Assembly (NCBI GenBank): GCA_031370645.1
Contig: JANMQV010000060.1
Span: forward strand, 1 to 37,809
Origin: Candidatus Eiseniibacteriota bacterium
GTDB lineage: Bacteria; Eisenbacteria; RBG-16-71-46; SZUA-252
DNA: 37,809 nt
Direction of reading: 5' to 3'
Each line of letters starts with the position of its first letter. The stretch's first letter is position 1. The notes beneath the pieces are model-generated. The model worked only from the letters and a program-made list of their open reading frames with translations. It was not told the origin of the DNA and did not search any database. Both the position numbers and the translations under genes were made by a program. Below are positions 843 to 11,024 of the stretch, one piece after another.

Positions 843-1223
843 TCAGTACGACGAGTAGGCGTTCAGATTCGCCTTCGCGACGCCCGTCGTGGAGTTGTAC
901 TGCCAGCCGCCGGCGTTATCGATGCCCGCCGTCGTCTTCACAGCCAGCGAGTTGTTGACCGGTTCCTTCGGGACGCGGCCGTCGGCGAAGATCGTGCCGT
1001 CGAGCGTCGGGAAGGTGGCGCTGCCGTTGAGAGCGTTACGCGCGTACTGAATGGCGATCGCCGAACGAATCGCGCCCAACTGGCCCTTCAGCGTGGCGAC
1101 GCGCGCCTGCTCCCGCATGTCCTCGTACTTCGGGATCGCGACCGCGGCGAGGATGCCGAGGATCACGATCACGATCACCAACTCGATGAGCGTGAAGCCC
1201 GATTCCGAATGCTTCCGAACCAT
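843..1223 (-). CDS. Type IV pilin (MshA/GspG-like), 126 aa prepilin
   Basis: Class III signal MVRKHSESG|FTLIELVIVIVILGILAAVAIP with E5; strong RBS AGGGAGGT upstream of ATG 1223 (the ORF-track start at 1277 is over-extended); mature length 117 aa with no Cys. Confidence 0.95.
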   Translation of the reverse strand: MVRKHSESGFTLIELVIVIVILGILAAVAIPKYEDMREQARVATLKGQLGAIRSAIAIQYARNALNGSATFPTLDGTIFADGRVPKEPVNNSLAVKTTAGIDNAGGWQYNSTTGVAKANLNAYSSY

Positions 1224-1295
1224 GATGAAAACCTCCCTGTTCAACGGACCTGAGTGCCCAGCCCCCGCGGGCTGCATGGATGGCTACGAGTGAAA

Positions 1296-1324
1296 GATTC
1301 GGCTGTTTCGAACCCGATCTTTAG
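1296..1324 (-). promoter_or_regulatory. sigma28 (FliA/WhiG)-like promoter for the pilin gene
   Basis: Minus strand CTAAAG-N15-GCCGAATC in the pilC-pilin intergenic region, compared with consensus TAAAG...GCCGATAA. Confidence 0.6.
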
Positions 1325-1341
1325 TCCCCGAAATCGCGCCT

Positions 1342-2589
1342 TTAGTGGCGGAAGGCGCTCATGAGGTTCCAAAGAGGCAAGAAGACGGCCAAGGCGGTGA
1401 AGAGGATCCCGACCGCCATGACAACCAGGAGCACCGGCTCCAGGGCGGAGGAGAGGTTTTTGAGGGCGTAATCGACGTCCCTATCGAGATATGTGGCGCC
1501 CCGGGCGAGGAGTGTATCGAGCGCTCCGGTCTCCTCGCCGACCCCCACCAATTCGACTACCAGAGGCGGGAAAACCCGGCTCCCCCGGATCGGCTCGGTC
1601 AATCCCTGACCGGCCACCACTCCATCCCGCATCTTGTCGACATCGACTTCGGCCACTTTGTTGCCGAGCACCCCCCGCGCGATCGACAGCGCCTGGACGA
1701 CCGGAATACCGGCCGCGAGGAGCGCCGACAAAACGCGGATGAAGCGCGACACGATGAGCTTCTGCATGACCGGCCCGAAAATCGGCGCGCCGAGAATCCA
1801 GCCGTCGATGCGGGCCCTCCCGCCCGGTGTGCGCGACCAGAGAATCCAGGCCGTGACCGCCGCGACGATTCCGAAAAGTACGAGGAGGAACTGCGCTTCG
1901 AAGAAGTCGCTCACGCCGATCAAGACGCGCGTCGGAAACGGTAGGTCGGCGCCGAGTCCTTTGAAGAGGCTGGCGAAGCGCGGAAGGACGAACTTCACGA
2001 GCACGAGGAACGCGACCACGAGCTCGATGCAGATCACCATCGGATAGAAGGTGGCCGAGCGGAGCCGCTGATCGGTTTCCTCTCCGTATTCGAGAATGAT
2101 CGCCACACGGTCGAGCATCTGCGTGAGAAGACCGCTCTCCTCGCCCGCGTGGACGAGGCTCACATAGAGCTCGGGGAAACAGCGATCGTGGCGTGCCATC
2201 GCCTCCGTGAGCGTGCTTCCCTGGGAGACGTCGCTCACCACGGTGTCGATCGCCTCGCGGAGCGGAAGGCTCGTCGATTGCGCGCCAAGGAGCCCGAGCG
2301 CTGAAACGAGCGGAAGGCCCGCCTCGAGCATCGTCTCCAATTGCCGCGTGAAGAGGATGAGGTCGCGGCTCGAGACGCGCGGGGTGAAGAACGGGATCAC
2401 GAGGGGGCGGGACGCGGCGCCGACCGGCGACTTCGCGCCCGTTGCGGCCTCGCTCTTCGCCTCCAGGCGAATCGGGGTCAGTCCCCGCGCATGGATTTGG
2501 CCGATCGCTGCGTCGAGATCGGGAGCATCGAGAACACCCTGCTCGGCGCTCCCGGTCGCCGCGAGAGCGCGATAGTGGTAGGTCGCCAT
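1342..2589 (-). CDS. pilC: Type IV pilus / T2SS inner-membrane platform protein (PilC/GspF family)
   Basis: MATYHYRAL N-terminus; two T2SSF repeats (FTRQLETMLEAGLPL...AGEESG; ...GEETGALD...LEP); C-terminal AVFLPLWNL helix. Confidence 0.95.
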   Translation of the reverse strand: MATYHYRALAATGSAEQGVLDAPDLDAAIGQIHARGLTPIRLEAKSEAATGAKSPVGAASRPLVIPFFTPRVSSRDLILFTRQLETMLEAGLPLVSALGLLGAQSTSLPLREAIDTVVSDVSQGSTLTEAMARHDRCFPELYVSLVHAGEESGLLTQMLDRVAIILEYGEETDQRLRSATFYPMVICIELVVAFLVLVKFVLPRFASLFKGLGADLPFPTRVLIGVSDFFEAQFLLVLFGIVAAVTAWILWSRTPGGRARIDGWILGAPIFGPVMQKLIVSRFIRVLSALLAAGIPVVQALSIARGVLGNKVAEVDVDKMRDGVVAGQGLTEPIRGSRVFPPLVVELVGVGEETGALDTLLARGATYLDRDVDYALKNLSSALEPVLLVVMAVGILFTALAVFLPLWNLMSAFRH

Positions 2590-2592
2590 CGG

Positions 2593-4302
2593 CTACCGGC
2601 CCGCGTCGGTCGCTTGGCTGTCGACGAGGGCGGCGTCGCGGGACGTGATGCGGAGCACCTCCTCGAGCGTGGTGAGCCCCTTCGCCGCTTTTCGTGCCGC
2701 GTCCTCCACGAGGAGCTGCATGCCGCCGCGCCGCGCGGCCCGGGCCAGTTCCTCGACCGGAGCGTGCGAGGCGATGAGCGAACGGATCTCCTCGGAGATG
2801 TCGAAGACTTCGTAGATGCCGATCCGCCCCTTGTACCCGGTGTCTCCGCAGGCGCGACAGCCGGCCGCTTCGAAGAAGGTCCCCTTCCCCCGCGGCAAAC
2901 CGAGCGAAGCGAGGAGATCGTCGGGAGGCGTCACGGGGCGCCGGCACTTCTCGCAGACGCGGCGAAGGAGCCGCTGCGCCACGACGCCGTTCAGCGCCGA
3001 GGCGAGGAGGTAGGGCGCGATCTGCATGTCGAGAAGGCGCGGAATCGCGGCGACGGCGTCGTTCGTGTGGAGCGTGGAGAAGACGAGATGCCCGGTGAGC
3101 GCCGAGCGAACGGCGATCTCGGCCGTGTCGTTGTCGCGGACCTCGCCAACCAGGATCACGTCGGGATCCTGGCGGAGAAGCGCGCGGAGGCCGCGCGCGA
3201 AGGTGAGCCCGATTTCGGGATCGACCTGGGTCTGGCGGACCGTCGTCACGTGATACTCGACCGGATCCTCCAGGGTGGCGATGTTTCGGTTCACCGTGTT
3301 GATCGTGTTGATGCAGGCGTAGAGGGTCGTCGTCTTGCCGCTTCCCGTCGGGCCGGTCACGAGCACGATGCCGTTCGGCCGCGCGACCATCCGTTCCACG
3401 AGCGCGAGCGGCTCGGGGGGGATGCCGAGATCGGCGAGGCCCCGAAGCGGCGAGGAGAGATCGAGAATTCGAAGCACCACGTTCTCGCCGTGGATCGTCG
3501 GAAAGGTCGAGACGCGGAGATCGAATTCCTTCCCCGCCGCGCTCGTCCGGATGCGGCCGTCCTGAGGGAGCCGCCGTTCGGAGATATCGAGCGACGCCAT
3601 CACCTTGATGCGCGACACGACCGACGCGTAGAGCGTCTTCGCCTGGGTTGCGACTTCGCGAAGCTGACCGTCCACGCGAATCCGGATTCGGAACGACGCC
3701 TCCTCGGGCTCGATGTGGAGGTCCGAGGCTCCTTCGCGCACGGCCTGTTCGATGAGGGCGTTCACGAAGCGGATGATCGGGCCGTCTTCTTCGGGGCGCG
3801 CGGCCACCGCGGCGGCCGCCTGCTTCAACGCCGCCTGCTGGCGGACGATCGAATCGAGTCCGCCGGAGGCCGGCGTGTAGCGGTCGATCGCCTCGCGGAT
3901 CTGAGAGCCCGCCGCCACGACGACATCGACGTCGAGCCCGGTTGTCAGACGCACTTCGTCGCGCGCCACCACGTCGAGCGGGTCGGCCATCGCGACGGTG
4001 AGCGTGTTTCCGATCTTGAAGAGGGAGACGATCTGGTACTGGCGAGCGACGCGCTCGGGGACGAGCCGCACGATCTCGGGTTCGAGAACGTAGGTCGAGA
4101 GGTCCATCCGAGGCACGCCGAGTTGCTCTTCGTAGTAGTCGAGGATCGCGTTCTCGGAGACGAGCTCGAGGCGAAGGAGGACTTCGCGAAGGGTGGCGCC
4201 CGTTCGGCGCTGCTCCTCGAGCGCGCGCGAAAGCCCCGCGGACGTGAGGTGTCCCTGCTCGACGAGGCACTGTCCGAGCGGCTTTCGTCCTCCGGAATTC
4301 AT
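2593..4302 (-). CDS. pilB: Type IV pilus assembly ATPase (PilB/GspE/MshE family) with N-terminal MshEN domain
   Basis: ASDLHIEP, ERRLPQDGR, Walker A GPTGSGKTT, Asp box TLEDPVEY, LRQDPDVILVGEVRD, His box TGHLVFSTLH, Zn site CEKC...CRAC; RBS AAGGAGG. Confidence 0.95.
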   Translation of the reverse strand: MNSGGRKPLGQCLVEQGHLTSAGLSRALEEQRRTGATLREVLLRLELVSENAILDYYEEQLGVPRMDLSTYVLEPEIVRLVPERVARQYQIVSLFKIGNTLTVAMADPLDVVARDEVRLTTGLDVDVVVAAGSQIREAIDRYTPASGGLDSIVRQQAALKQAAAAVAARPEEDGPIIRFVNALIEQAVREGASDLHIEPEEASFRIRIRVDGQLREVATQAKTLYASVVSRIKVMASLDISERRLPQDGRIRTSAAGKEFDLRVSTFPTIHGENVVLRILDLSSPLRGLADLGIPPEPLALVERMVARPNGIVLVTGPTGSGKTTTLYACINTINTVNRNIATLEDPVEYHVTTVRQTQVDPEIGLTFARGLRALLRQDPDVILVGEVRDNDTAEIAVRSALTGHLVFSTLHTNDAVAAIPRLLDMQIAPYLLASALNGVVAQRLLRRVCEKCRRPVTPPDDLLASLGLPRGKGTFFEAAGCRACGDTGYKGRIGIYEVFDISEEIRSLIASHAPVEELARAARRGGMQLLVEDAARKAAKGLTTLEEVLRITSRDAALVDSQATDAGR

Positions 4303-4350
4303 GGCGATCCCCTCCTTGCGGCCGCGCGGATGAGCGGGCTGTCGGATGGG

Positions 4351-4429: not shown

Positions 4430-5587
4430 CTATCGCTGGAATTCGCTCGGGTCTGTCTCGGAGTTCTCGAGGTCGGGCGGAAGTTCCGGCTCCTGCTTGA
4501 TTTCCGGCTTCGCGTCGGAGCCGAGATCGGTGAGCGTCAGCTCGGTCCAGGAAAGGAGCGATCGGGGCGTGGCCGAAGCAGAGAGACCGGTCGAATCGGG
4601 CGCAAGCGCACCGGCGACCGTATCGGCGTGGAGGAGGCTATCGGCCTGCGCCGCTACCGCCACCGCGGCGGCGAGGAGGGTCGAGTCGGGTCGAGTCGTC
4701 AACGGCGCGCCCGACAGGAGGCTGTCGCTCTTCGCACTCCACGGCAGGCGTCGCATTTCCGCCTGGAAGACCGAACGGGCGAATCCGGTGATCGGCACGA
4801 CGCCATTTCGCCAGAAGGTCTGCGTCAGCACGAGCCGCTCGATGCCGGTCGAATCGTCGTTCGACGGCCAGCGATCCGTGCCGTAGCGGCGCACGCGCTC
4901 CACCACGGCGGGTACGACGCGACGGCCCAGGCGAAGCGTATCGGGCCCTACCGAGGACTGGATCGGCCGGATGCTCGGATCGTACTCGAAGAGTTCGAAC
5001 GAACTGACTTCTCCGCCGGAACGAGCGTGGCGGGAGGCGCCGACCGGATATTCGTAGAGCTTGGCTCCGCTCATCGCCTGGTAGCGAACCAGCACGAAGC
5101 CATCTTCGTCGCGCGTCGCGGCGAGAGGGGCCGCGTCGTCGTCATTCGCCGAGTCGTCGGAGCCGGGGGAATCGCCCGTCTGCGAAGAGCCGCCGATCTG
5201 CGATCCGTCGCCGCCGGGAAGGAGGTCGGTCCCGCGCAGAGCCGCCGGCGCGAAGAGGCCACGCTCGATCCGCGGCATGCCGCGGCCGTCGGTCGTCTTC
5301 AGCTCGACCCAGAGCCCCCAGCGTCCCCTCCCGAGATCCTCCCTCGAGACGACGGCGACGCGCTGGTCGAATTCCCGGACGGAAGAGTGGCCGCTTTGGG
5401 TCCGCCCGTGGAACGAGACCCAGGTACCAACTAAATCGTGAGCGGGGAGGCGAAGCGAACGAAGCTTGAGGGTCTGCGCGGAAGCGGAAGGGATGCTCCC
5501 CGCCGCCACGGCGAACGCAAAGATGGCGAACGCCGCAACGCGGAGAAACCTAATCCCAGTGATTGATGTGACTGACGGCCTCGTCAT
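4430..5587 (-). CDS. Exported hypothetical protein (start uncertain)
   Basis: Signal-peptide-like RFLRVAAFAIFAFAVAAGSIPSASA|Q, beta-rich body, acidic low-complexity insert and a cluster of D(S/T) motifs. ATG 5587 overlaps the end of the upstream cytochrome gene by 38 nt. Confidence 0.75.
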   Translation of the reverse strand: MTRPSVTSITGIRFLRVAAFAIFAFAVAAGSIPSASAQTLKLRSLRLPAHDLVGTWVSFHGRTQSGHSSVREFDQRVAVVSREDLGRGRWGLWVELKTTDGRGMPRIERGLFAPAALRGTDLLPGGDGSQIGGSSQTGDSPGSDDSANDDDAAPLAATRDEDGFVLVRYQAMSGAKLYEYPVGASRHARSGGEVSSFELFEYDPSIRPIQSSVGPDTLRLGRRVVPAVVERVRRYGTDRWPSNDDSTGIERLVLTQTFWRNGVVPITGFARSVFQAEMRRLPWSAKSDSLLSGAPLTTRPDSTLLAAAVAVAAQADSLLHADTVAGALAPDSTGLSASATPRSLLSWTELTLTDLGSDAKPEIKQEPELPPDLENSETDPSEFQR

Positions 5588-6896
5588 AGTCGAAGTTCGG
5601 GCTCTGCTCCTTGGTGTGGCAACGGGCGCAGGCTTCCGGTCCCACCGATGAGACTCCGTCCGGATGCTTCGTTCCCATCCCATGGCAGTTCTCGCACTGG
5701 ACGTTTACGAGGTCGGGGGTCGACTGCTTCGAGATGAACCCGCCGGCCTGCCCCAGCCCCACGACGTGACACGTGAGGCACTCAGGCGTGGCGTCGCGCT
5801 CGGCTTTCACCAGCGTTTCGAACGCGCGCGCGTGGCTCTGCTTCAGGTACTTCTGGTATTCGACTTCGTGGCAGCGACGGCACGTCTTCTCGCCGAGATA
5901 GTGGTCCGCGGCCAACAGCTGCTGCGTCTGCGCTTCCTGCTGCGTCGCCTGCTGCTGGTTCTGCGTGGCGAACCGCCGGTTCAACTCGTCGCTGAAGGCG
6001 TCCACCTGCTGATTCATGGTTTCGTCGGCCGGCACCTTGTCGTCGAGCACGACGACTTCGCCGTCGTACGACGTGATCTTCCCGTCTTCCACGACGAGGT
6101 GGATGCCTGGAATGTGTTGCCCGCGCTCTCCTCCACGGACGTTGATGACGCCCTGCGTCTGGACGACGTCCTTGAAGAGCCCCACCTGGTGTCCGAAGAC
6201 CATGACGTCGATCCCCGGCACTTCCACCGTGAGCCGCTGCCCCTCGGGAAGTCCGAGGTGCGAGAGAACGATGATCACGTCGGCCTTCTTCCGGAGCTCC
6301 GGAATGAGCGTCCTCGCCGTCTCGATCGGATCGAGGATTTCGAGCGGCGATTCCGACGGCACCGTCCGGAACTTCGCGTCCTTCCAGATGAAGCCGGTGA
6401 ACGCGACGCGCACGGAGCCGATCCGCCGAATGACGTACGGCTTCACGAACGGCTTCTTGGTGCCGGCGAAGACGATATTCGCCGAGACGACGTCGATCTT
6501 CGTCTTCTTGAACGTGTCGAGCAGGTACTTCTGCCCGAAACTGAACTCACGTTCCCCCAGCGTGACGACGTCGTAATGCAACTTGTTCATCGTCTGGACC
6601 AGGAACTCGCTCTTCAGCGAATCCTGGACGCCGCCGAATCCGAAGAAGTCGCCCGCGTCCACGAGCAGACGGTTCGGGAACTTCGTCGCACCGATCTTGA
6701 GTTGACTCGCCCTCCGGGCGAGTCCGCCTAGCGGGTGCGCGTGTCAGCCACAGGGGGCGAGCTCCCCAAAGACGTCGGTGGTGCTTTGGAGGAAAATGTC
6801 GGTCGGGGCGCTCTTCCCTTGGAGCGACGCGGCAGCCGTAAGCATAAGCGCGACAACAAGAAAGAGCAGGTATCGAATTCGAGCCAGCGAAATCAC
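5550..6896 (-). CDS. Exported UshA-like (5'-nucleotidase-fold) selenoprotein fused to a cytochrome c554-like tetraheme domain; Sec encoded by TGA 6746-6744
   Basis: The frame of ORF 5550..6662 continues upstream across a single TGA: MISLARIRYLLFLVVALMLTAAASLQG KSAPTDIFLQSTTDVFGELAPCG-U-HAHPLGGLARRASQLKIGATKFPNRLLVDAGDFF. It supplies a signal peptide, the first metallophosphoesterase strand, and the CxU and GGLARRA motifs. Four CxxCH motifs (CRRCH, CLTCH, CENCH, CARCH) lie at the C-terminus. Start is GTG 6896 or CTG 6887; about 448 aa. Confidence 0.9.
6704..6724 (-). promoter_or_regulatory. Bacterial SECIS-like hairpin
   Basis: Minus strand GACTCGCCC-GGA-GGGCGAGTC: a perfect 9-bp stem with a G-starting apical loop 28 nt downstream of the in-frame UGA. 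Confidence 0.82.
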
Positions 6897-6915
6897 CCCC
6901 TCACGCGGTCAGATA

Positions 6916-6943
6916 GTATCGGCAACGTGACGCAAAACTATAC
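6916..6943 (-). promoter_or_regulatory. sigma28-like promoter upstream of the selenoprotein gene, overlapping a possible sigma70 promoter
   Basis: Minus strand TATAGTTT-N11-GCCGATAC matches 14 of 16 positions of TAAAGTTT-N11-GCCGATAA. The same TATAGT can also be a sigma70 -10 with TTGAAC (6966-6961) 18 nt upstream. Confidence 0.55.
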
Positions 6944-6975
6944 CCCGCTGCGCTTCCCGGGTTCAAGGCGGGAGG

Positions 6976-7035: not shown

Positions 7036-7326
7036 CTACTTCTTGACGCGATCCTTGAGCGCCTTGCCGGCATGGAACGCCGGGAAGCGCGACGCGGCGA
7101 TCTTGATCTTTTCGCCGGTCTGCGGATTGCGCCCGTCGCGAGCCTTCCGCTTGCGGGTTTCGAAAGTGCCAAATCCAGTGATCTGGACCTTCTTGCCCGA
7201 GATCAGCGCGGCCGCGATAACACCTTCTTTTCCGGGCGAGAAGATCATCTCGACAACGGAGCGCGCCTGACGGGAGGAAATGCTCGCCTTCTTCGCGATC
7301 ATGGCTACGAGTTCGGTCTTGTTCAT
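7036..7326 (-). CDS. hup: HU family DNA-binding protein
   Basis: MNKTELV...VQITGFGTFETRKRKARDGRNPQTGEKIKIAASRFPAFHAGKALKD; perfect RBS AAAGGAGGTGA. Confidence 0.97.
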   Translation of the reverse strand: MNKTELVAMIAKKASISSRQARSVVEMIFSPGKEGVIAAALISGKKVQITGFGTFETRKRKARDGRNPQTGEKIKIAASRFPAFHAGKALKDRVKK

Positions 7327-7421: not shown

Positions 7422-10400
7422 TCAGCGGAGCTGGTCGATTCCGCCGAAGCCGCGGAGCCCGCGAGACCCCTGCTCGTAGTAGACCTCGGGAAGATTCTTC
7501 ACGTTGATCTTGAAGTAATACTCCTTCGTGTCGCCCGAGATGCTCCGAGTGAACTGCGCCTGCCAGCAGTGGAGGTCGCGCGTGATGCTGAAGTTCTGGG
7601 AGACGAGGCGCACGGCATGACCGGTGATGACGCCAGCCCGATCCTTGATGTCGGCGCGAAGGTCCGCCTGCGCAGCATATTCCACGTGCCAGTTGCGAGA
7701 CAGGTTGAGGCTCAGGAAGCTATTCGCGCGCTCCGTCGATGCCCACCGTTGGTACCCCCCGCCCGTCAGATTCCGGGCGCGGGAGCCGTCATAGGCGACG
7801 GAGAGTGTCAGGTTCCAGGGGAGCCCAGAGTCGGCCGTGCCGGGACGGAGCGGGTCCCCGAGCGCCCCGGCGAAGCCGCTCCCCACCACCCCGGCGGCAA
7901 CGGCTGGATCGCCGGCGTTCGCCTGGTCCACGGAAGCGACCGAGCGGCCCGTCAGCGTGAAGCCGGTCGAGGCGCTGAAGGAGAGGAGCCGACGGTCGTA
8001 CGGATTGTGGAGGAATCTGAACGAAAAATCGCTTCGCGGCGTGGGGGCCACGCGGAGCGTCGTCGAAAGATCGGAGAGCGGCTTTCTCCCGACTTTCTCG
8101 GCCAGGAAGTCGTAGGAGCCGGAGGTGTTCATCTGGATGAAGTTGTTGATCACCTTCGGCTGCTGCGCGTCGCCCCATTTCAGATGCAGATCGTTTCGCA
8201 GCGAGAATTGAAGCGAGCGTTGCTCACTGGCGCTGATCGGTGCAATCCCACTCACGCCGCCGAAGCGCGGAGCCAGCACACCTGAGGGTGTGCGGTAGAA
8301 GAGGCTCGGGGAGGAGGGCTGGTACGCGAAGGTGACCGACGGCGTCACGACGTGCCGGAGCGCGCGAAGTGGTCCGAGGGGATGGCGGAACGTGCCGAAG
8401 ATCGCCGTGTTCACGCCGGCGCTCCCGCGCCAGACGCCCGCTCGCTGATTTCGATTCCCCGCCTGATCGCGCGTCGTGAACGCCTCGCTGTAGTCCATCC
8501 GGGTCGATAGCCCCAGGAAGCCGAGCGCCCGCCTCTGATCCGTGAGCGAAACGTCGTGGCGCGCGGCCGTGCGTGCATCGATCACCGAGTCCTGCCCGCC
8601 GCCCGTCGAGTCCGCGGGAATCGAATTCACGTACTGATTTCGCTGGCTGACGACGCTGGAGGAGAACGCCACCAGCGTCTGCGAGAGCCACGGCAGGCGA
8701 GCCGGTTCCTTTCCCCGCGCCAGGTGTCCCAGCGGCCGCGCCGAGAGTCGGAACGATGCCGACGGCAATTGCTGCTCGATGCGAAGCCCGAACGGCTCGG
8801 GGTCGAGGTCCTGATTCCGGAGGAGCCCGATGTTCAGCGTCGAACTCGGCCACGTGCGATCGAGCGAGAAACTCGAACGGAGGTTTCGCTGCACCCGAAC
8901 CGAGACCGGCCGTCCGAGGTTCGCGTCGCGGTAGTACGAGGAGGAGTTCGTGAGATTCGCGAGGCCGCGAACCGTGAATCCAGGTGCCAGCGTCTGGAAG
9001 TGGCTCCCCTGGAGATCCCACGCCGACTGCTGGAACGTCGGACCGAGCGAGCGCTGATAGGAGCCGCTCAGCTGCCCTTGGAACTCGTAGAGCTTGTGGT
9101 AGCGGACCTGGCCGTGACCCACCCAGCGCGCGGCCTGGTAGTAATCGCCCCACCCGGTCGCGTCGACATAATCGTTCATCGCCCAGTAGTAGCCGAGATT
9201 CCGAATGAACTTTCCTCCGGCGCTCGACGATCCGAACTCCACCTGGGGCAATTGGAAGCCCGAATGCCGCCCCGACTTGATCGGAAAGATGTAGAACGGA
9301 AGCGCCAAGAGCGGGATGTTCTTGAAGTAGAAGACGACCGGTTTCGCCACGACCTTGTCGCGGAGAACGAGGCGCATCTTGGAAGAGCCGAAATGGAAGT
9401 GCGGCTCCGGGAGATCGCAGGTCGTATAGGTGCCCTCCCGCACGTTGAAGATGTTCTCCGAAACGCGCCGCACCTCGTGTCCGGCGAAGTAGCCGCGATC
9501 GTAGGTCGTCCGCCCGGCGTAGACCGTCCCTCGCCGGATGGCGAGGTCGTAGGTCATCGTCTCGCCGACGATCCGGTCCTTCCCGTCCTGGAGCACCGGC
9601 TCCCCGTCGGCGCGCATCTTCTGGGAACGCGCGTCGAAGTGGACGCGGGTCGCCTGGAGATTCATCTCCTTGTAGGTCACGTCGGCGGTGCCGAGCACGT
9701 CCACGAGGCGCGTCTCCACGTCGTATTCGATCCGCTGCCCTCGGTACCGGATATGGTCGAGCTTCGCCGCCGCCGCCGTGTCCCCCTCGGCCGCGAGGTA
9801 GTACGTCCCCTCGCTTCGGCCGAGCACCGTCGCGCGCCGCGGCTTTCCGTCTTCGAAGCCGACGCGGATCGTGTCGCCGCTCGCCACGTTCCGGCCCCCT
9901 TCGGCGCTGTCGGTGGAGGCGGGCCAGTAGAGGCTCTTCGCGTTCCCGACGATGAACGCCTCCCGCGCCTCGTCGTTTTCGAGGAAGAGCGTGATCGTAT
10001 CGCCGCGAGCCATGTTCCGCTCTCCACGCCCGGTCGCGGTCCGCTCCTCGTAGTCCACGGAGGCGTTCGGCCGCATCTGGAGCGACGCGATCCGGCCGTC
10101 GTGGAACCGGACCTCCATGCTGTCGCCCCGCGCGATCCCCTCAGGGCTCACGGCGGCCGGGTTCCCGACCAGGAGCGCCCGGTCTTCGCTCCGGAAGAAC
10201 GAGGCGGCCTCGCTTGTCGCGTGAAGACTGTCGCGGTCGATCCGCACCGTTCCCACGGCGAAGACTCGGTTTCGAGAGTTGTCGAAGCGCAGCGTGTCGG
10301 CCGCGATGTTGGTCGCCCGTCCGTCCTTTTCGACGAGTATCAGGCTCGGCGATTCCTCGGCCCACGCATAGTCGGCGCGGCGGTCGTAGCGGATTCGCCC

Positions 10401-11024
10401 GGCGCGGACCTTCGTGCTCTCCGCGCGATCCTCCGCGTCCACCTTTCCGATGGCGGTAACGATGTCGTGCCCTCGGTCGTACTCGATCCGCTCGGCGCGG
10501 AGCGTGCGCAAGGAATCGCGGAGCATGGCGTTTCCCGTGATGACCGAGAAGTCTCGGTCGCGGTAAAAGGTCGCTTCCTGTCCCGTGATGACGGTGCCCT
10601 GATCGTCGATCCGCACGTTTCCGCGCAGAATGGCGAGGCGCAGCTTCCGGTCGTAGGAGGCCTCGGTGCCGCGCATGACGGTCGTGCCGTCGACGATCTT
10701 CACGTTGCCGTGGAAGACGACGAATTCACGACTCTGATAGATCTGCGCTGAGTCGCCGGTGACACGCGTCGCGCCGTGGACGACGGTGACCTTCGTCGCG
10801 CGGAGAACATTTTCTCCGGAGGCGGCCGACCCTTCCAGATGGTCCGCGTTCAATTGGTACGGCTCCTCGGGACTCGGAGGTGTCAGAATCGGTGCGGGGG
10901 CGCTCGCGGTCTGGGCGAAGGCGAGGGCGGCGGGCGCCGTTGCCGCGAGGAGGGCGAACAGGGCGTAGCGGAGCGGTGCGAGCGCGCGGATCGCGCCGCG
11001 AGCGGCGTCCGTCCTAGAGCGCAC
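7422..11024 (-). CDS. lptD: LPS-assembly protein LptD with a greatly extended N-terminal OstA/LptA-like beta-jellyroll region (1200 aa)
   Basis: Signal peptide; repeated OstA-type units (GNVKIVD, GNVRIDD, ADTLRFD, GQRIEYD); YTTCDLPEPHFHF and RHSGFQLP motifs; beta-barrel ending in RDLHCW. Confidence 0.85.
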   Translation of the reverse strand: MRSRTDAARGAIRALAPLRYALFALLAATAPAALAFAQTASAPAPILTPPSPEEPYQLNADHLEGSAASGENVLRATKVTVVHGATRVTGDSAQIYQSREFVVFHGNVKIVDGTTVMRGTEASYDRKLRLAILRGNVRIDDQGTVITGQEATFYRDRDFSVITGNAMLRDSLRTLRAERIEYDRGHDIVTAIGKVDAEDRAESTKVRAGRIRYDRRADYAWAEESPSLILVEKDGRATNIAADTLRFDNSRNRVFAVGTVRIDRDSLHATSEAASFFRSEDRALLVGNPAAVSPEGIARGDSMEVRFHDGRIASLQMRPNASVDYEERTATGRGERNMARGDTITLFLENDEAREAFIVGNAKSLYWPASTDSAEGGRNVASGDTIRVGFEDGKPRRATVLGRSEGTYYLAAEGDTAAAAKLDHIRYRGQRIEYDVETRLVDVLGTADVTYKEMNLQATRVHFDARSQKMRADGEPVLQDGKDRIVGETMTYDLAIRRGTVYAGRTTYDRGYFAGHEVRRVSENIFNVREGTYTTCDLPEPHFHFGSSKMRLVLRDKVVAKPVVFYFKNIPLLALPFYIFPIKSGRHSGFQLPQVEFGSSSAGGKFIRNLGYYWAMNDYVDATGWGDYYQAARWVGHGQVRYHKLYEFQGQLSGSYQRSLGPTFQQSAWDLQGSHFQTLAPGFTVRGLANLTNSSSYYRDANLGRPVSVRVQRNLRSSFSLDRTWPSSTLNIGLLRNQDLDPEPFGLRIEQQLPSASFRLSARPLGHLARGKEPARLPWLSQTLVAFSSSVVSQRNQYVNSIPADSTGGGQDSVIDARTAARHDVSLTDQRRALGFLGLSTRMDYSEAFTTRDQAGNRNQRAGVWRGSAGVNTAIFGTFRHPLGPLRALRHVVTPSVTFAYQPSSPSLFYRTPSGVLAPRFGGVSGIAPISASEQRSLQFSLRNDLHLKWGDAQQPKVINNFIQMNTSGSYDFLAEKVGRKPLSDLSTTLRVAPTPRSDFSFRFLHNPYDRRLLSFSASTGFTLTGRSVASVDQANAGDPAVAAGVVGSGFAGALGDPLRPGTADSGLPWNLTLSVAYDGSRARNLTGGGYQRWASTERANSFLSLNLSRNWHVEYAAQADLRADIKDRAGVITGHAVRLVSQNFSITRDLHCWQAQFTRSISGDTKEYYFKINVKNLPEVYYEQGSRGLRGFGGIDQLR

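Follow-up and report, generated by a model that had tools for sequence, protein, structure and literature searches.

A 37,809-nt stretch of a Candidatus Eiseniibacteriota bacterium assembly (contig JANMQV010000060.1; hereafter the window) raised the question of whether an open reading frame (ORF) for a multiheme protein is a complete gene, and what the complete protein might do. The ORF lies on the minus strand at 5550-6662, encodes 370 amino acids from a GTG start, begins with MDAGDFFG and carries four CxxCH motifs (CRRCH, CLTCH, CENCH and CARCH). A second ORF of 50 codons at 6744-6896 on the same strand shares its frame and stops at a TGA at 6746-6744. When this TGA was read as selenocysteine (Sec, U), a single protein of 448 residues was obtained, VISLARIRYLLFLVVALMLTAAASLQGKS...TTDVFGELAPCGUHAHPLGGLARRA.... 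The whole gene thus occupied 5550-6896 (-), with a GTG start at 6896-6894, 448 codons, one in-frame TGA and a TAG stop. The coordinates of the gene, the shorter ORF start and the TGA had been given in a preliminary description of the window, and all of them were correct against the ORF list and the read-through translation.

Selenocysteine at the in-frame TGA

The conservation of the TGA was examined in 41 related genomes, of which 24 from the same family and 16 from other families of the class were tallied. The best full-length match had exactly one TGA in 23 of the 24 same-family genomes, at identities down to 32%, and the best match had exactly one in all 16 of the others (39/40 in total). 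The exception was G019, which gave a weak match only. The TGA was retained in 7/7 of the same-genus orthologues compared. The 50 codons upstream of it showed synonymous to non-synonymous changes of 12:2 against L021 and of 9:3, 8:3 and 9:2 against L022-L024. In the read-through translations of the relatives, the TGA always fell within P-C-G-U, followed by GGLARR. Five stop-less paralogues had Cys in the TGA column, as PCGC, ECGC or TCGC. In the window's protein the TGA (6744-6746, -) corresponds to Sec51 of P48-C49-G50-U51, and C49, G50 and position 51 were invariant in an alignment of 31 sequences.

A wider sample gave a similar picture. Among 150 representatives of clusters at 50% identity, 79 had C..C, 68 were too short at the N-terminus to reach the site and three differed; none had Trp. 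Eighty named genome records, drawn from many phyla, showed TGA at the site in 59 cases and a Cys codon in 15; the other six were too short for a call. The comparison of homologues that the preliminary description had proposed found TGA or Cys in this column.

The same TGA was looked for in public sequencing runs, since a sequencing error had been named as a possible cause. Contigs covering the site from three other runs of two studies differed from the window at 13, 8 and 8 other letters, and positions 6744-6746 were identical. Run X7 was left out of this comparison because it covered the Sec site with a diverged piece only and not with a long contig. The TGA does not stem from an assembly error. 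TGA was also the terminator of 10 of the 24 ORFs of the window, which meant that the code is the standard one and not a variant. Genome-wide recoding of TGA was rejected on this count and because the frames of the 1200-residue LptD-like protein, selA and selB had no internal TGA.

An artefact or a pseudogene, in which the TGA would have arisen by faulty sequencing, be a genuine stop between two separate ORFs or specify another residue in a variant code, would agree with the 370-residue ORF being all that gene callers report. However, the TGA was kept in dozens of independent assemblies across phyla, including the contigs of the other runs, and it ends other ORFs of the window in the ordinary way. 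The change upstream of it was mostly synonymous, homologues had Cys and never Trp at the site, and a four-heme protein that lacked the upstream part would have no export signal. An artefact is thus extremely improbable and, on the sequence evidence, already refuted.

A hairpin resembling a selenocysteine insertion sequence (SECIS) was found at 6704-6724 (-), in the codons of L-A-R-R-A-S. It has a 9-bp stem, GACUCGCCC/GGGCGAGUC, and the loop GGA; the distance from the UGA is 19 nt to the stem and 28 nt to the loop. The fold energy was -31.2 kcal/mol (z = -2.68). The hairpin recurred in Sec genes and was not at the same place in the five Cys paralogues. In 30 Sec genes, 92.7% of cells paired, compared with at most 50.6% when the partner was slid, and 27 cells changed on both sides; this level was reached by 0 of 500 shuffles. 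As a caveat, the hairpin is located in the codons of a conserved peptide. An Rfam scan of 6500-6950 matched no family, but Rfam seems to have no model for such a hairpin, so the scan was uninformative. Contigs of runs X5 and X6 showed a strain variant at 6720, G to A on the plus strand and C to U in the 5' arm of the hairpin. Pairing is retained there through a G-U, which orthologues L022 and L023 also have.

The machinery for selenocysteine was then looked for in the source genome, which is 95% complete, as the preliminary description had suggested for selA, selB, selC and selD. Genes for selA (480 bits), selB (345 bits) and selD (354 bits) were found over their curated cut-offs. The selD gene has an in-frame TGA of its own, with SelD as a selenoprotein. 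Two tRNA-Sec genes were detected by ARAGORN, one directly after selD (C103:6057-6154, within the selD locus G000:C103:5013-6154) and one at C167:16683-16779. The reading of the TGA as selenocysteine in the preliminary description was thus upheld by the conserved TGA, by Cys in homologues, by the covarying hairpin and by selA, selB, selD and tRNA-Sec in the genome. That the TGA at 6746-6744 encodes selenocysteine is settled to the extent that sequence evidence allows.

Domain architecture and family membership

The read-through protein had four parts. Residues 1-25 (6822-6896, -) resemble a signal peptide by inspection, with two Arg followed by LLFLVVALMLTAAAS. This gives a positive start and a 15-residue hydrophobic core, followed by AAS/LQ, and the stretch was conserved in orthologues. 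In the AlphaFold2 model, a lone helix was formed by residues 4-25, with a low-confidence stretch at 25-27 after it. A signal peptide would be expected because c-type hemes must be received outside the cytoplasm. The N-terminus restored by read-through looks like one, as had been proposed.

Residues ~31-290 (6027-6806, -) form a domain of the 5'-nucleotidase/metallophosphoesterase fold with degenerate metal ligands. The Pfam family Metallophos (PF00149) matched this domain weakly, at 23.8 bits. The best Foldseek matches were 5'-nucleotidases (E ~5e-25), and a PDB-sequence profile search gave the 5'-nucleotidase 2z1a at 1.8e-34. The mean pLDDT of the model, which also showed a beta-sandwich domain, was 83.7, and the N-domain was mostly above 90. 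It is followed by a Gln-rich linker at residues 292-328 (5913-6023, -), which was modelled as one long helix.

The C-terminal part, residues 331-448 (5553-5906, -), is a tetraheme domain resembling cytochrome c554 of Nitrosomonas. Cytochrome_C554 (PF13435) matched over its whole length at 2.4e-15 (57.7 bits against a gathering cut-off of 20.8), and c554 itself (1bvb) was matched at 4.4e-18 by profile. The four CxxCH motifs are C339-H343 (5868-5882, -), C373-H377 (5766-5780, -), C401-H405 (5682-5696, -) and C423-H427 (5616-5630, -). All four were invariant in the 31 sequences, and H355 and H411 were invariant as well. Cytochrome c554 has three bis-His hemes and one five-coordinate heme. The further conserved His residues here, H355, H411 and H446, would fit the same arrangement. 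In contrast to c554, the domain here is the C-terminal domain of a larger enzyme, and the c554 model NF043010 (Cyt554_Nsmonas) gave 40 bits against a cut-off of 400. These results agreed with the earlier proposal of a CxU domain fused through a Gln-rich linker to a c554-like tetraheme domain.

The best NCBIfam match was NF041198 (UshA_like_PCGU), named "UshA-like (seleno)protein", which scored 280.8 bits (curated cut-off 275). The score was barely over the cut-off, which places this lineage at the edge of the model. NF041198 was matched by 31/31 of the aligned relatives, and the PCGU/PCGC motif before GGLARR was present. The cut-off of NF049981 (UshA-like selenoprotein family 2, CxxU) was not reached (48.9 bits against 140). 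Judged by the curated NF041198 cut-off, the gene is a genuine member of the UshA-like (seleno)protein family, and the identity first assigned to it was kept. Of the 519 positions of the profile, 2-260 matched the N-domain and 345-518 the heme domain. This meant that the catalogued family already has the fused architecture, and the novelty of the fusion had been over-rated.

The family has been recorded before. A survey of ocean metagenomes (GOS) in 2008 counted 76 Sec and 92 Cys sequences in a CxU family called 'COG0737, UshA-like' (PMC2398784). The UshA-like CxU family is also listed in a 2022 review (PMC9312934) and in a 2026 review that cites NF041198 (PMC13188914). In the literature, no report was found on selenocysteine in Eisenbacteria, on a link between selenoprotein, multiheme and nucleotidase, or on a fusion of a metallophosphoesterase with a multiheme cytochrome.

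The family occurs in many phyla and is near-universal in one. A family gene was found at E <= 1e-40 in 113 of the 121 genomes of the phylum sample (112/120 without the unpublished G048). In a collection of 5.8 billion proteins, the best 120 matches were all 298-386 residues long and covered at most 85% of the query, lengths like that of the truncated ORF at 5550-6662. Their source names included 'multiheme c-type cytochrome [Candidatus Eisenbacteria bacterium]' and '2',3'-cyclic-nucleotide 2'-phosphodiesterase'. Standard gene callers truncate the gene, as had been predicted. Public records of it are almost all truncated, a systematic error by which the export signal is lost together with the sole motif that is invariant in the N-domain.

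Several variants of the family were observed. A Sec form stands beside a Cys form as a tandem paralogue in L045 (5001-7977) and L048 (3110-6139). In L042 (5001-7531), two Cys forms are adjacent and one of them has no heme domain. Contig G055:C39 has three family copies in a row. Shorter relatives without hemes (open frames of ~350-370 residues) and with one TGA were found at G036:C1:418404-419225 and G031:C2:681210-682130, so the CxU domain also exists as a stand-alone selenoprotein. Three representatives of ~1190-1207 residues (P0126, P0145 and P0150) have an N-terminal CxC..GG.ARR and a second family match at residues ~790-1200, and the module is therefore duplicated or fused in them.

The Cys/Sec loop and the former metal site

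The active-site motifs were mapped by profile alignment to the Thermus 5'-nucleotidase and by family alignments. The DxH strand and the GG.ARR helix are joined by the loop that bears the C-G-U. In the window's protein, the His of DxH is Phe (F43), and GNHE reads GERE, so that the catalytic His is Arg. The later His ligand positions were Q, E, N or R in many relatives, and the bridging Asp was Gly or Asn in some. The invariant residues of the N-domain in the 31 sequences were C49, G50, U/C51, G57, G58, R61, G82 and N140. When proteobacterial Cys forms were added, this set shrank to C, G, C/U, G, G, R and G. The alignments gave clear evidence that the former hydrolase site has, in all likelihood, given way to a Cys/Sec site.

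The protein shares with 5'-nucleotidases, UshA and CD73 the fold of the N-domain (TM ~0.55 over ~308 columns), the start of the GG.ARR helix and the long interdomain helix. However, the dimetal ligands and the catalytic His (DxH, GD, GNH[ED], H and GH, which we take to be the UshA set) are not conserved here. Where 5'-nucleotidases have a C-terminal nucleotide-binding domain, this protein has the tetraheme domain, and no Pfam match to that substrate-binding domain was obtained. SoxB thiosulfohydrolase (TIGR04486), a periplasmic enzyme of sulfur chemistry, belongs to the same superfamily and was the second-best NCBIfam match (1.1e-23). Its dimanganese ligands are not kept here, and the CxU loop and the hemes are absent from SoxB.

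The likeness to SoxB raises the alternative that the protein is still a hydrolase of the 5'-nucleotidase or SoxB type, which might split off sulfate or phosphate, for instance, from a substrate bound to a carrier. The Sec/Cys site would then be accessory, and the hemes would be regulatory or serve a separate activity. The conserved fold, the second rank of the SoxB model, its match to 26 of the 31 relatives and the profile match to SoxB in the PDB (3e-17) speak for it. However, SoxB reached 83.3 bits against a cut-off of 550 and UshA 52 against 600. The substitution of both His residues, the variation of the ligands in the family and the missing substrate-binding domain also argue against hydrolysis. 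This alternative is thus very unlikely. A function as SoxB or UshA proper was rejected on the cut-offs and the loss of ligands.

A metal or metalloid site has to be weighed as well. The Cys/Sec(/His) loop might bind a metal or metalloid, and the bound species (e.g. Fe, Cu, As, Se or Hg) or a chalcogen might be oxidised or reduced, with electrons passing through the hemes. The window's protein keeps D41, D83, E115, H214 and H236 at five former ligand positions and has H52 and H54 beside the Sec, which makes a metal site a live alternative. The motif of the window's subfamily is C-G-U-H-A-H and the fold is that of metalloenzymes. Multiheme cytochrome genes adjoin in L092 and L121, and metal transporters (P-type ATPase, cation efflux) are near some paralogues. 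Against this, neither the His residues after the Sec nor the former ligands are constant in the family (CGUKSKQRGG and CGUPAHPLGG, with Q or R at the later His), so the ligands common to all members would be two chalcogens only. A metal-handling gene was never a consistent neighbour. A metal site is thus unlikely, although not remote.

The best-supported reading is a redox-active Cys/Sec couple wired to the hemes, because the classical ligands and the catalytic His vary while C-G-U/C is invariant. An oxidoreductase built on the nucleotidase fold would fit the loss of the phosphoesterase ligands. The Cys-x-Sec spacing is shared with thiol-disulfide oxidoreductase-like selenoproteins such as SELENOF, in which CxU is reported to be redox-active and to resemble CxxC (PMC9304195). 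SELENOF-type proteins are thioredoxin-like and have no hemes, whereas the present protein combines a metallophosphoesterase fold with hemes. We consider it probable that the UshA-like selenoprotein is a periplasmic oxidoreductase, in which a Cys/Sec couple linked to four hemes connects a thiol or chalcogen reaction to the pool of c-type cytochromes. Such a protein would combine a Cys/Sec couple and four hemes with a fold that otherwise serves the hydrolysis of phosphate esters.

The steps of such a mechanism can be proposed. On the sequence evidence, UGA51 is decoded as selenocysteine with the aid of the hairpin in the conserved GGLARRA codons. The signal-peptide-like segment would direct export, and the hemes would be attached outside the cytoplasm. 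The tetraheme domain occupies the place of the C-terminal substrate-binding domain of 5'-nucleotidases, after a like long helix. Cys49 and Sec51 would form a selenenylsulfide/selenol-thiol couple on the loop that follows the first, formerly metal-binding strand. This couple would exchange electrons with the four hemes, and thiol/disulfide chemistry is the most likely class of substrate reaction.

Besides the retained ligand residues and the two His beside the Sec, several observations weigh against this oxidoreductase. The margin over the NF041198 cut-off was only 6 bits, and the heme domain was modelled at low confidence (pLDDT 50-80). GAGGGG abuts the GTG start, which is a poor spacing for a ribosome-binding site. 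The entries for the family in the three surveys cited above list it without hemes, export or function. The thiol-redox neighbours described below come from few and partly related loci. Most neighbours are housekeeping genes (LptD, HU, ROK kinase, Maf and RadA), which name no substrate.

Gene neighbourhood and a possible link to disulfide formation

The minus-strand order in the window was an LptD-like gene (7422-11024), HU (7036-7326), a hairpin with a T-run that was seen by eye, a promoter-like site and the selenoprotein gene. The promoter-like site, TTGAAC-18-TATAGT at 6937-6966 (-), is ~40 nt upstream of the GTG and was identified by consensus match alone, with one site found against 0.2 expected. 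In relatives, the recurring order was ROK kinase, LptD, (HU) and selenoprotein, often followed by cystathionine beta-synthase-like and gamma-lyase-like genes. An LptD-like gene was upstream on the same strand in 32 of the 49 Sec-type loci with at least 2.5 kb of flank and in none of the 13 Cys-type loci. This search covered the 80 named loci by tblastn with three Eisenbacteria queries at 1e-6, by which divergent LptD of other phyla could be missed. Records with such a gene carried the labels Eisenbacteria, Krumholzibacteriia, Fibrobacteraceae, Limnocylindrales (one record) or plain 'bacterium'.

In other loci the neighbours varied, with Maf, RadA or DciA in several loci and multiheme cytochromes in two. 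Three related Cys-type loci of deltaproteobacteria encode an exported DsbA-like CGSC protein 17-26 nt downstream. MauE/DoxX was directly upstream in two loci, DsbD with a TlpA-like redoxin was upstream in one, and AhpC/TSA was upstream in one. These neighbours gave hints of thiol redox partners.

The LptD-like protein of the window (7422-11024, -) has 1200 residues and matched LptD_2 (PF19838) and LptD_N/OstA. It had exactly two invariant Cys in 12/12 sequences, and C536 and C1153 are the sole Cys of the window's protein. This suggested a conserved disulfide. In the window's genome, searches for DsbB, VKOR and DsbA gave no match, and a CcdA/DsbD-type protein was present. None of the 41 related genomes gave a DsbB match, whereas one gave VKOR and 11 gave DsbA. 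The adjacency of LptD and the absence of DsbB and VKOR from the searched genomes provide a concrete hypothesis for envelope disulfide formation in these bacteria. For Eisenbacteria and neighbouring lineages (under the labels Krumholzibacteriia and Fibrobacteraceae), the protein might be the missing enzyme that generates disulfides in the periplasm. It would act as a soluble selenenylsulfide oxidase, wired to hemes, that passes electrons from envelope thiols, directly or through DsbA-like partners, to c-type cytochromes, and thus a functional analogue of DsbB/VKOR on a nucleotidase fold. We regard this specific role as quite doubtful. The pattern of LptD without DsbB agrees just as well with a gene order kept by descent and with lineages that have no DsbAB at all; a Bacteroides control genome likewise gave no match for DsbB, VKOR or DsbA.

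A DsbA-family match with one in-frame TGA was observed at G031:C4:547667-548242, and it is possibly a Sec-containing DsbA.

Downstream of the selenoprotein gene, an ORF of 386 residues at 4430-5590 (-) overlaps its end by ~40 nt and has a signal-peptide-like start. No match to the encoded protein was found in Pfam and NCBIfam. The same ORF was directly downstream in 12 of the 80 named loci, all of them close records of the Eisenbacteria type. It is followed in the window at 846-4350 (-) by genes for a GspE/PilB-like ATPase with a c-di-GMP-binding N-terminus (MshEN), GspF/PilC and a prepilin-type protein (pseudopilin). These genes also come after the selenoprotein gene in L034 and in 12 of the named loci.

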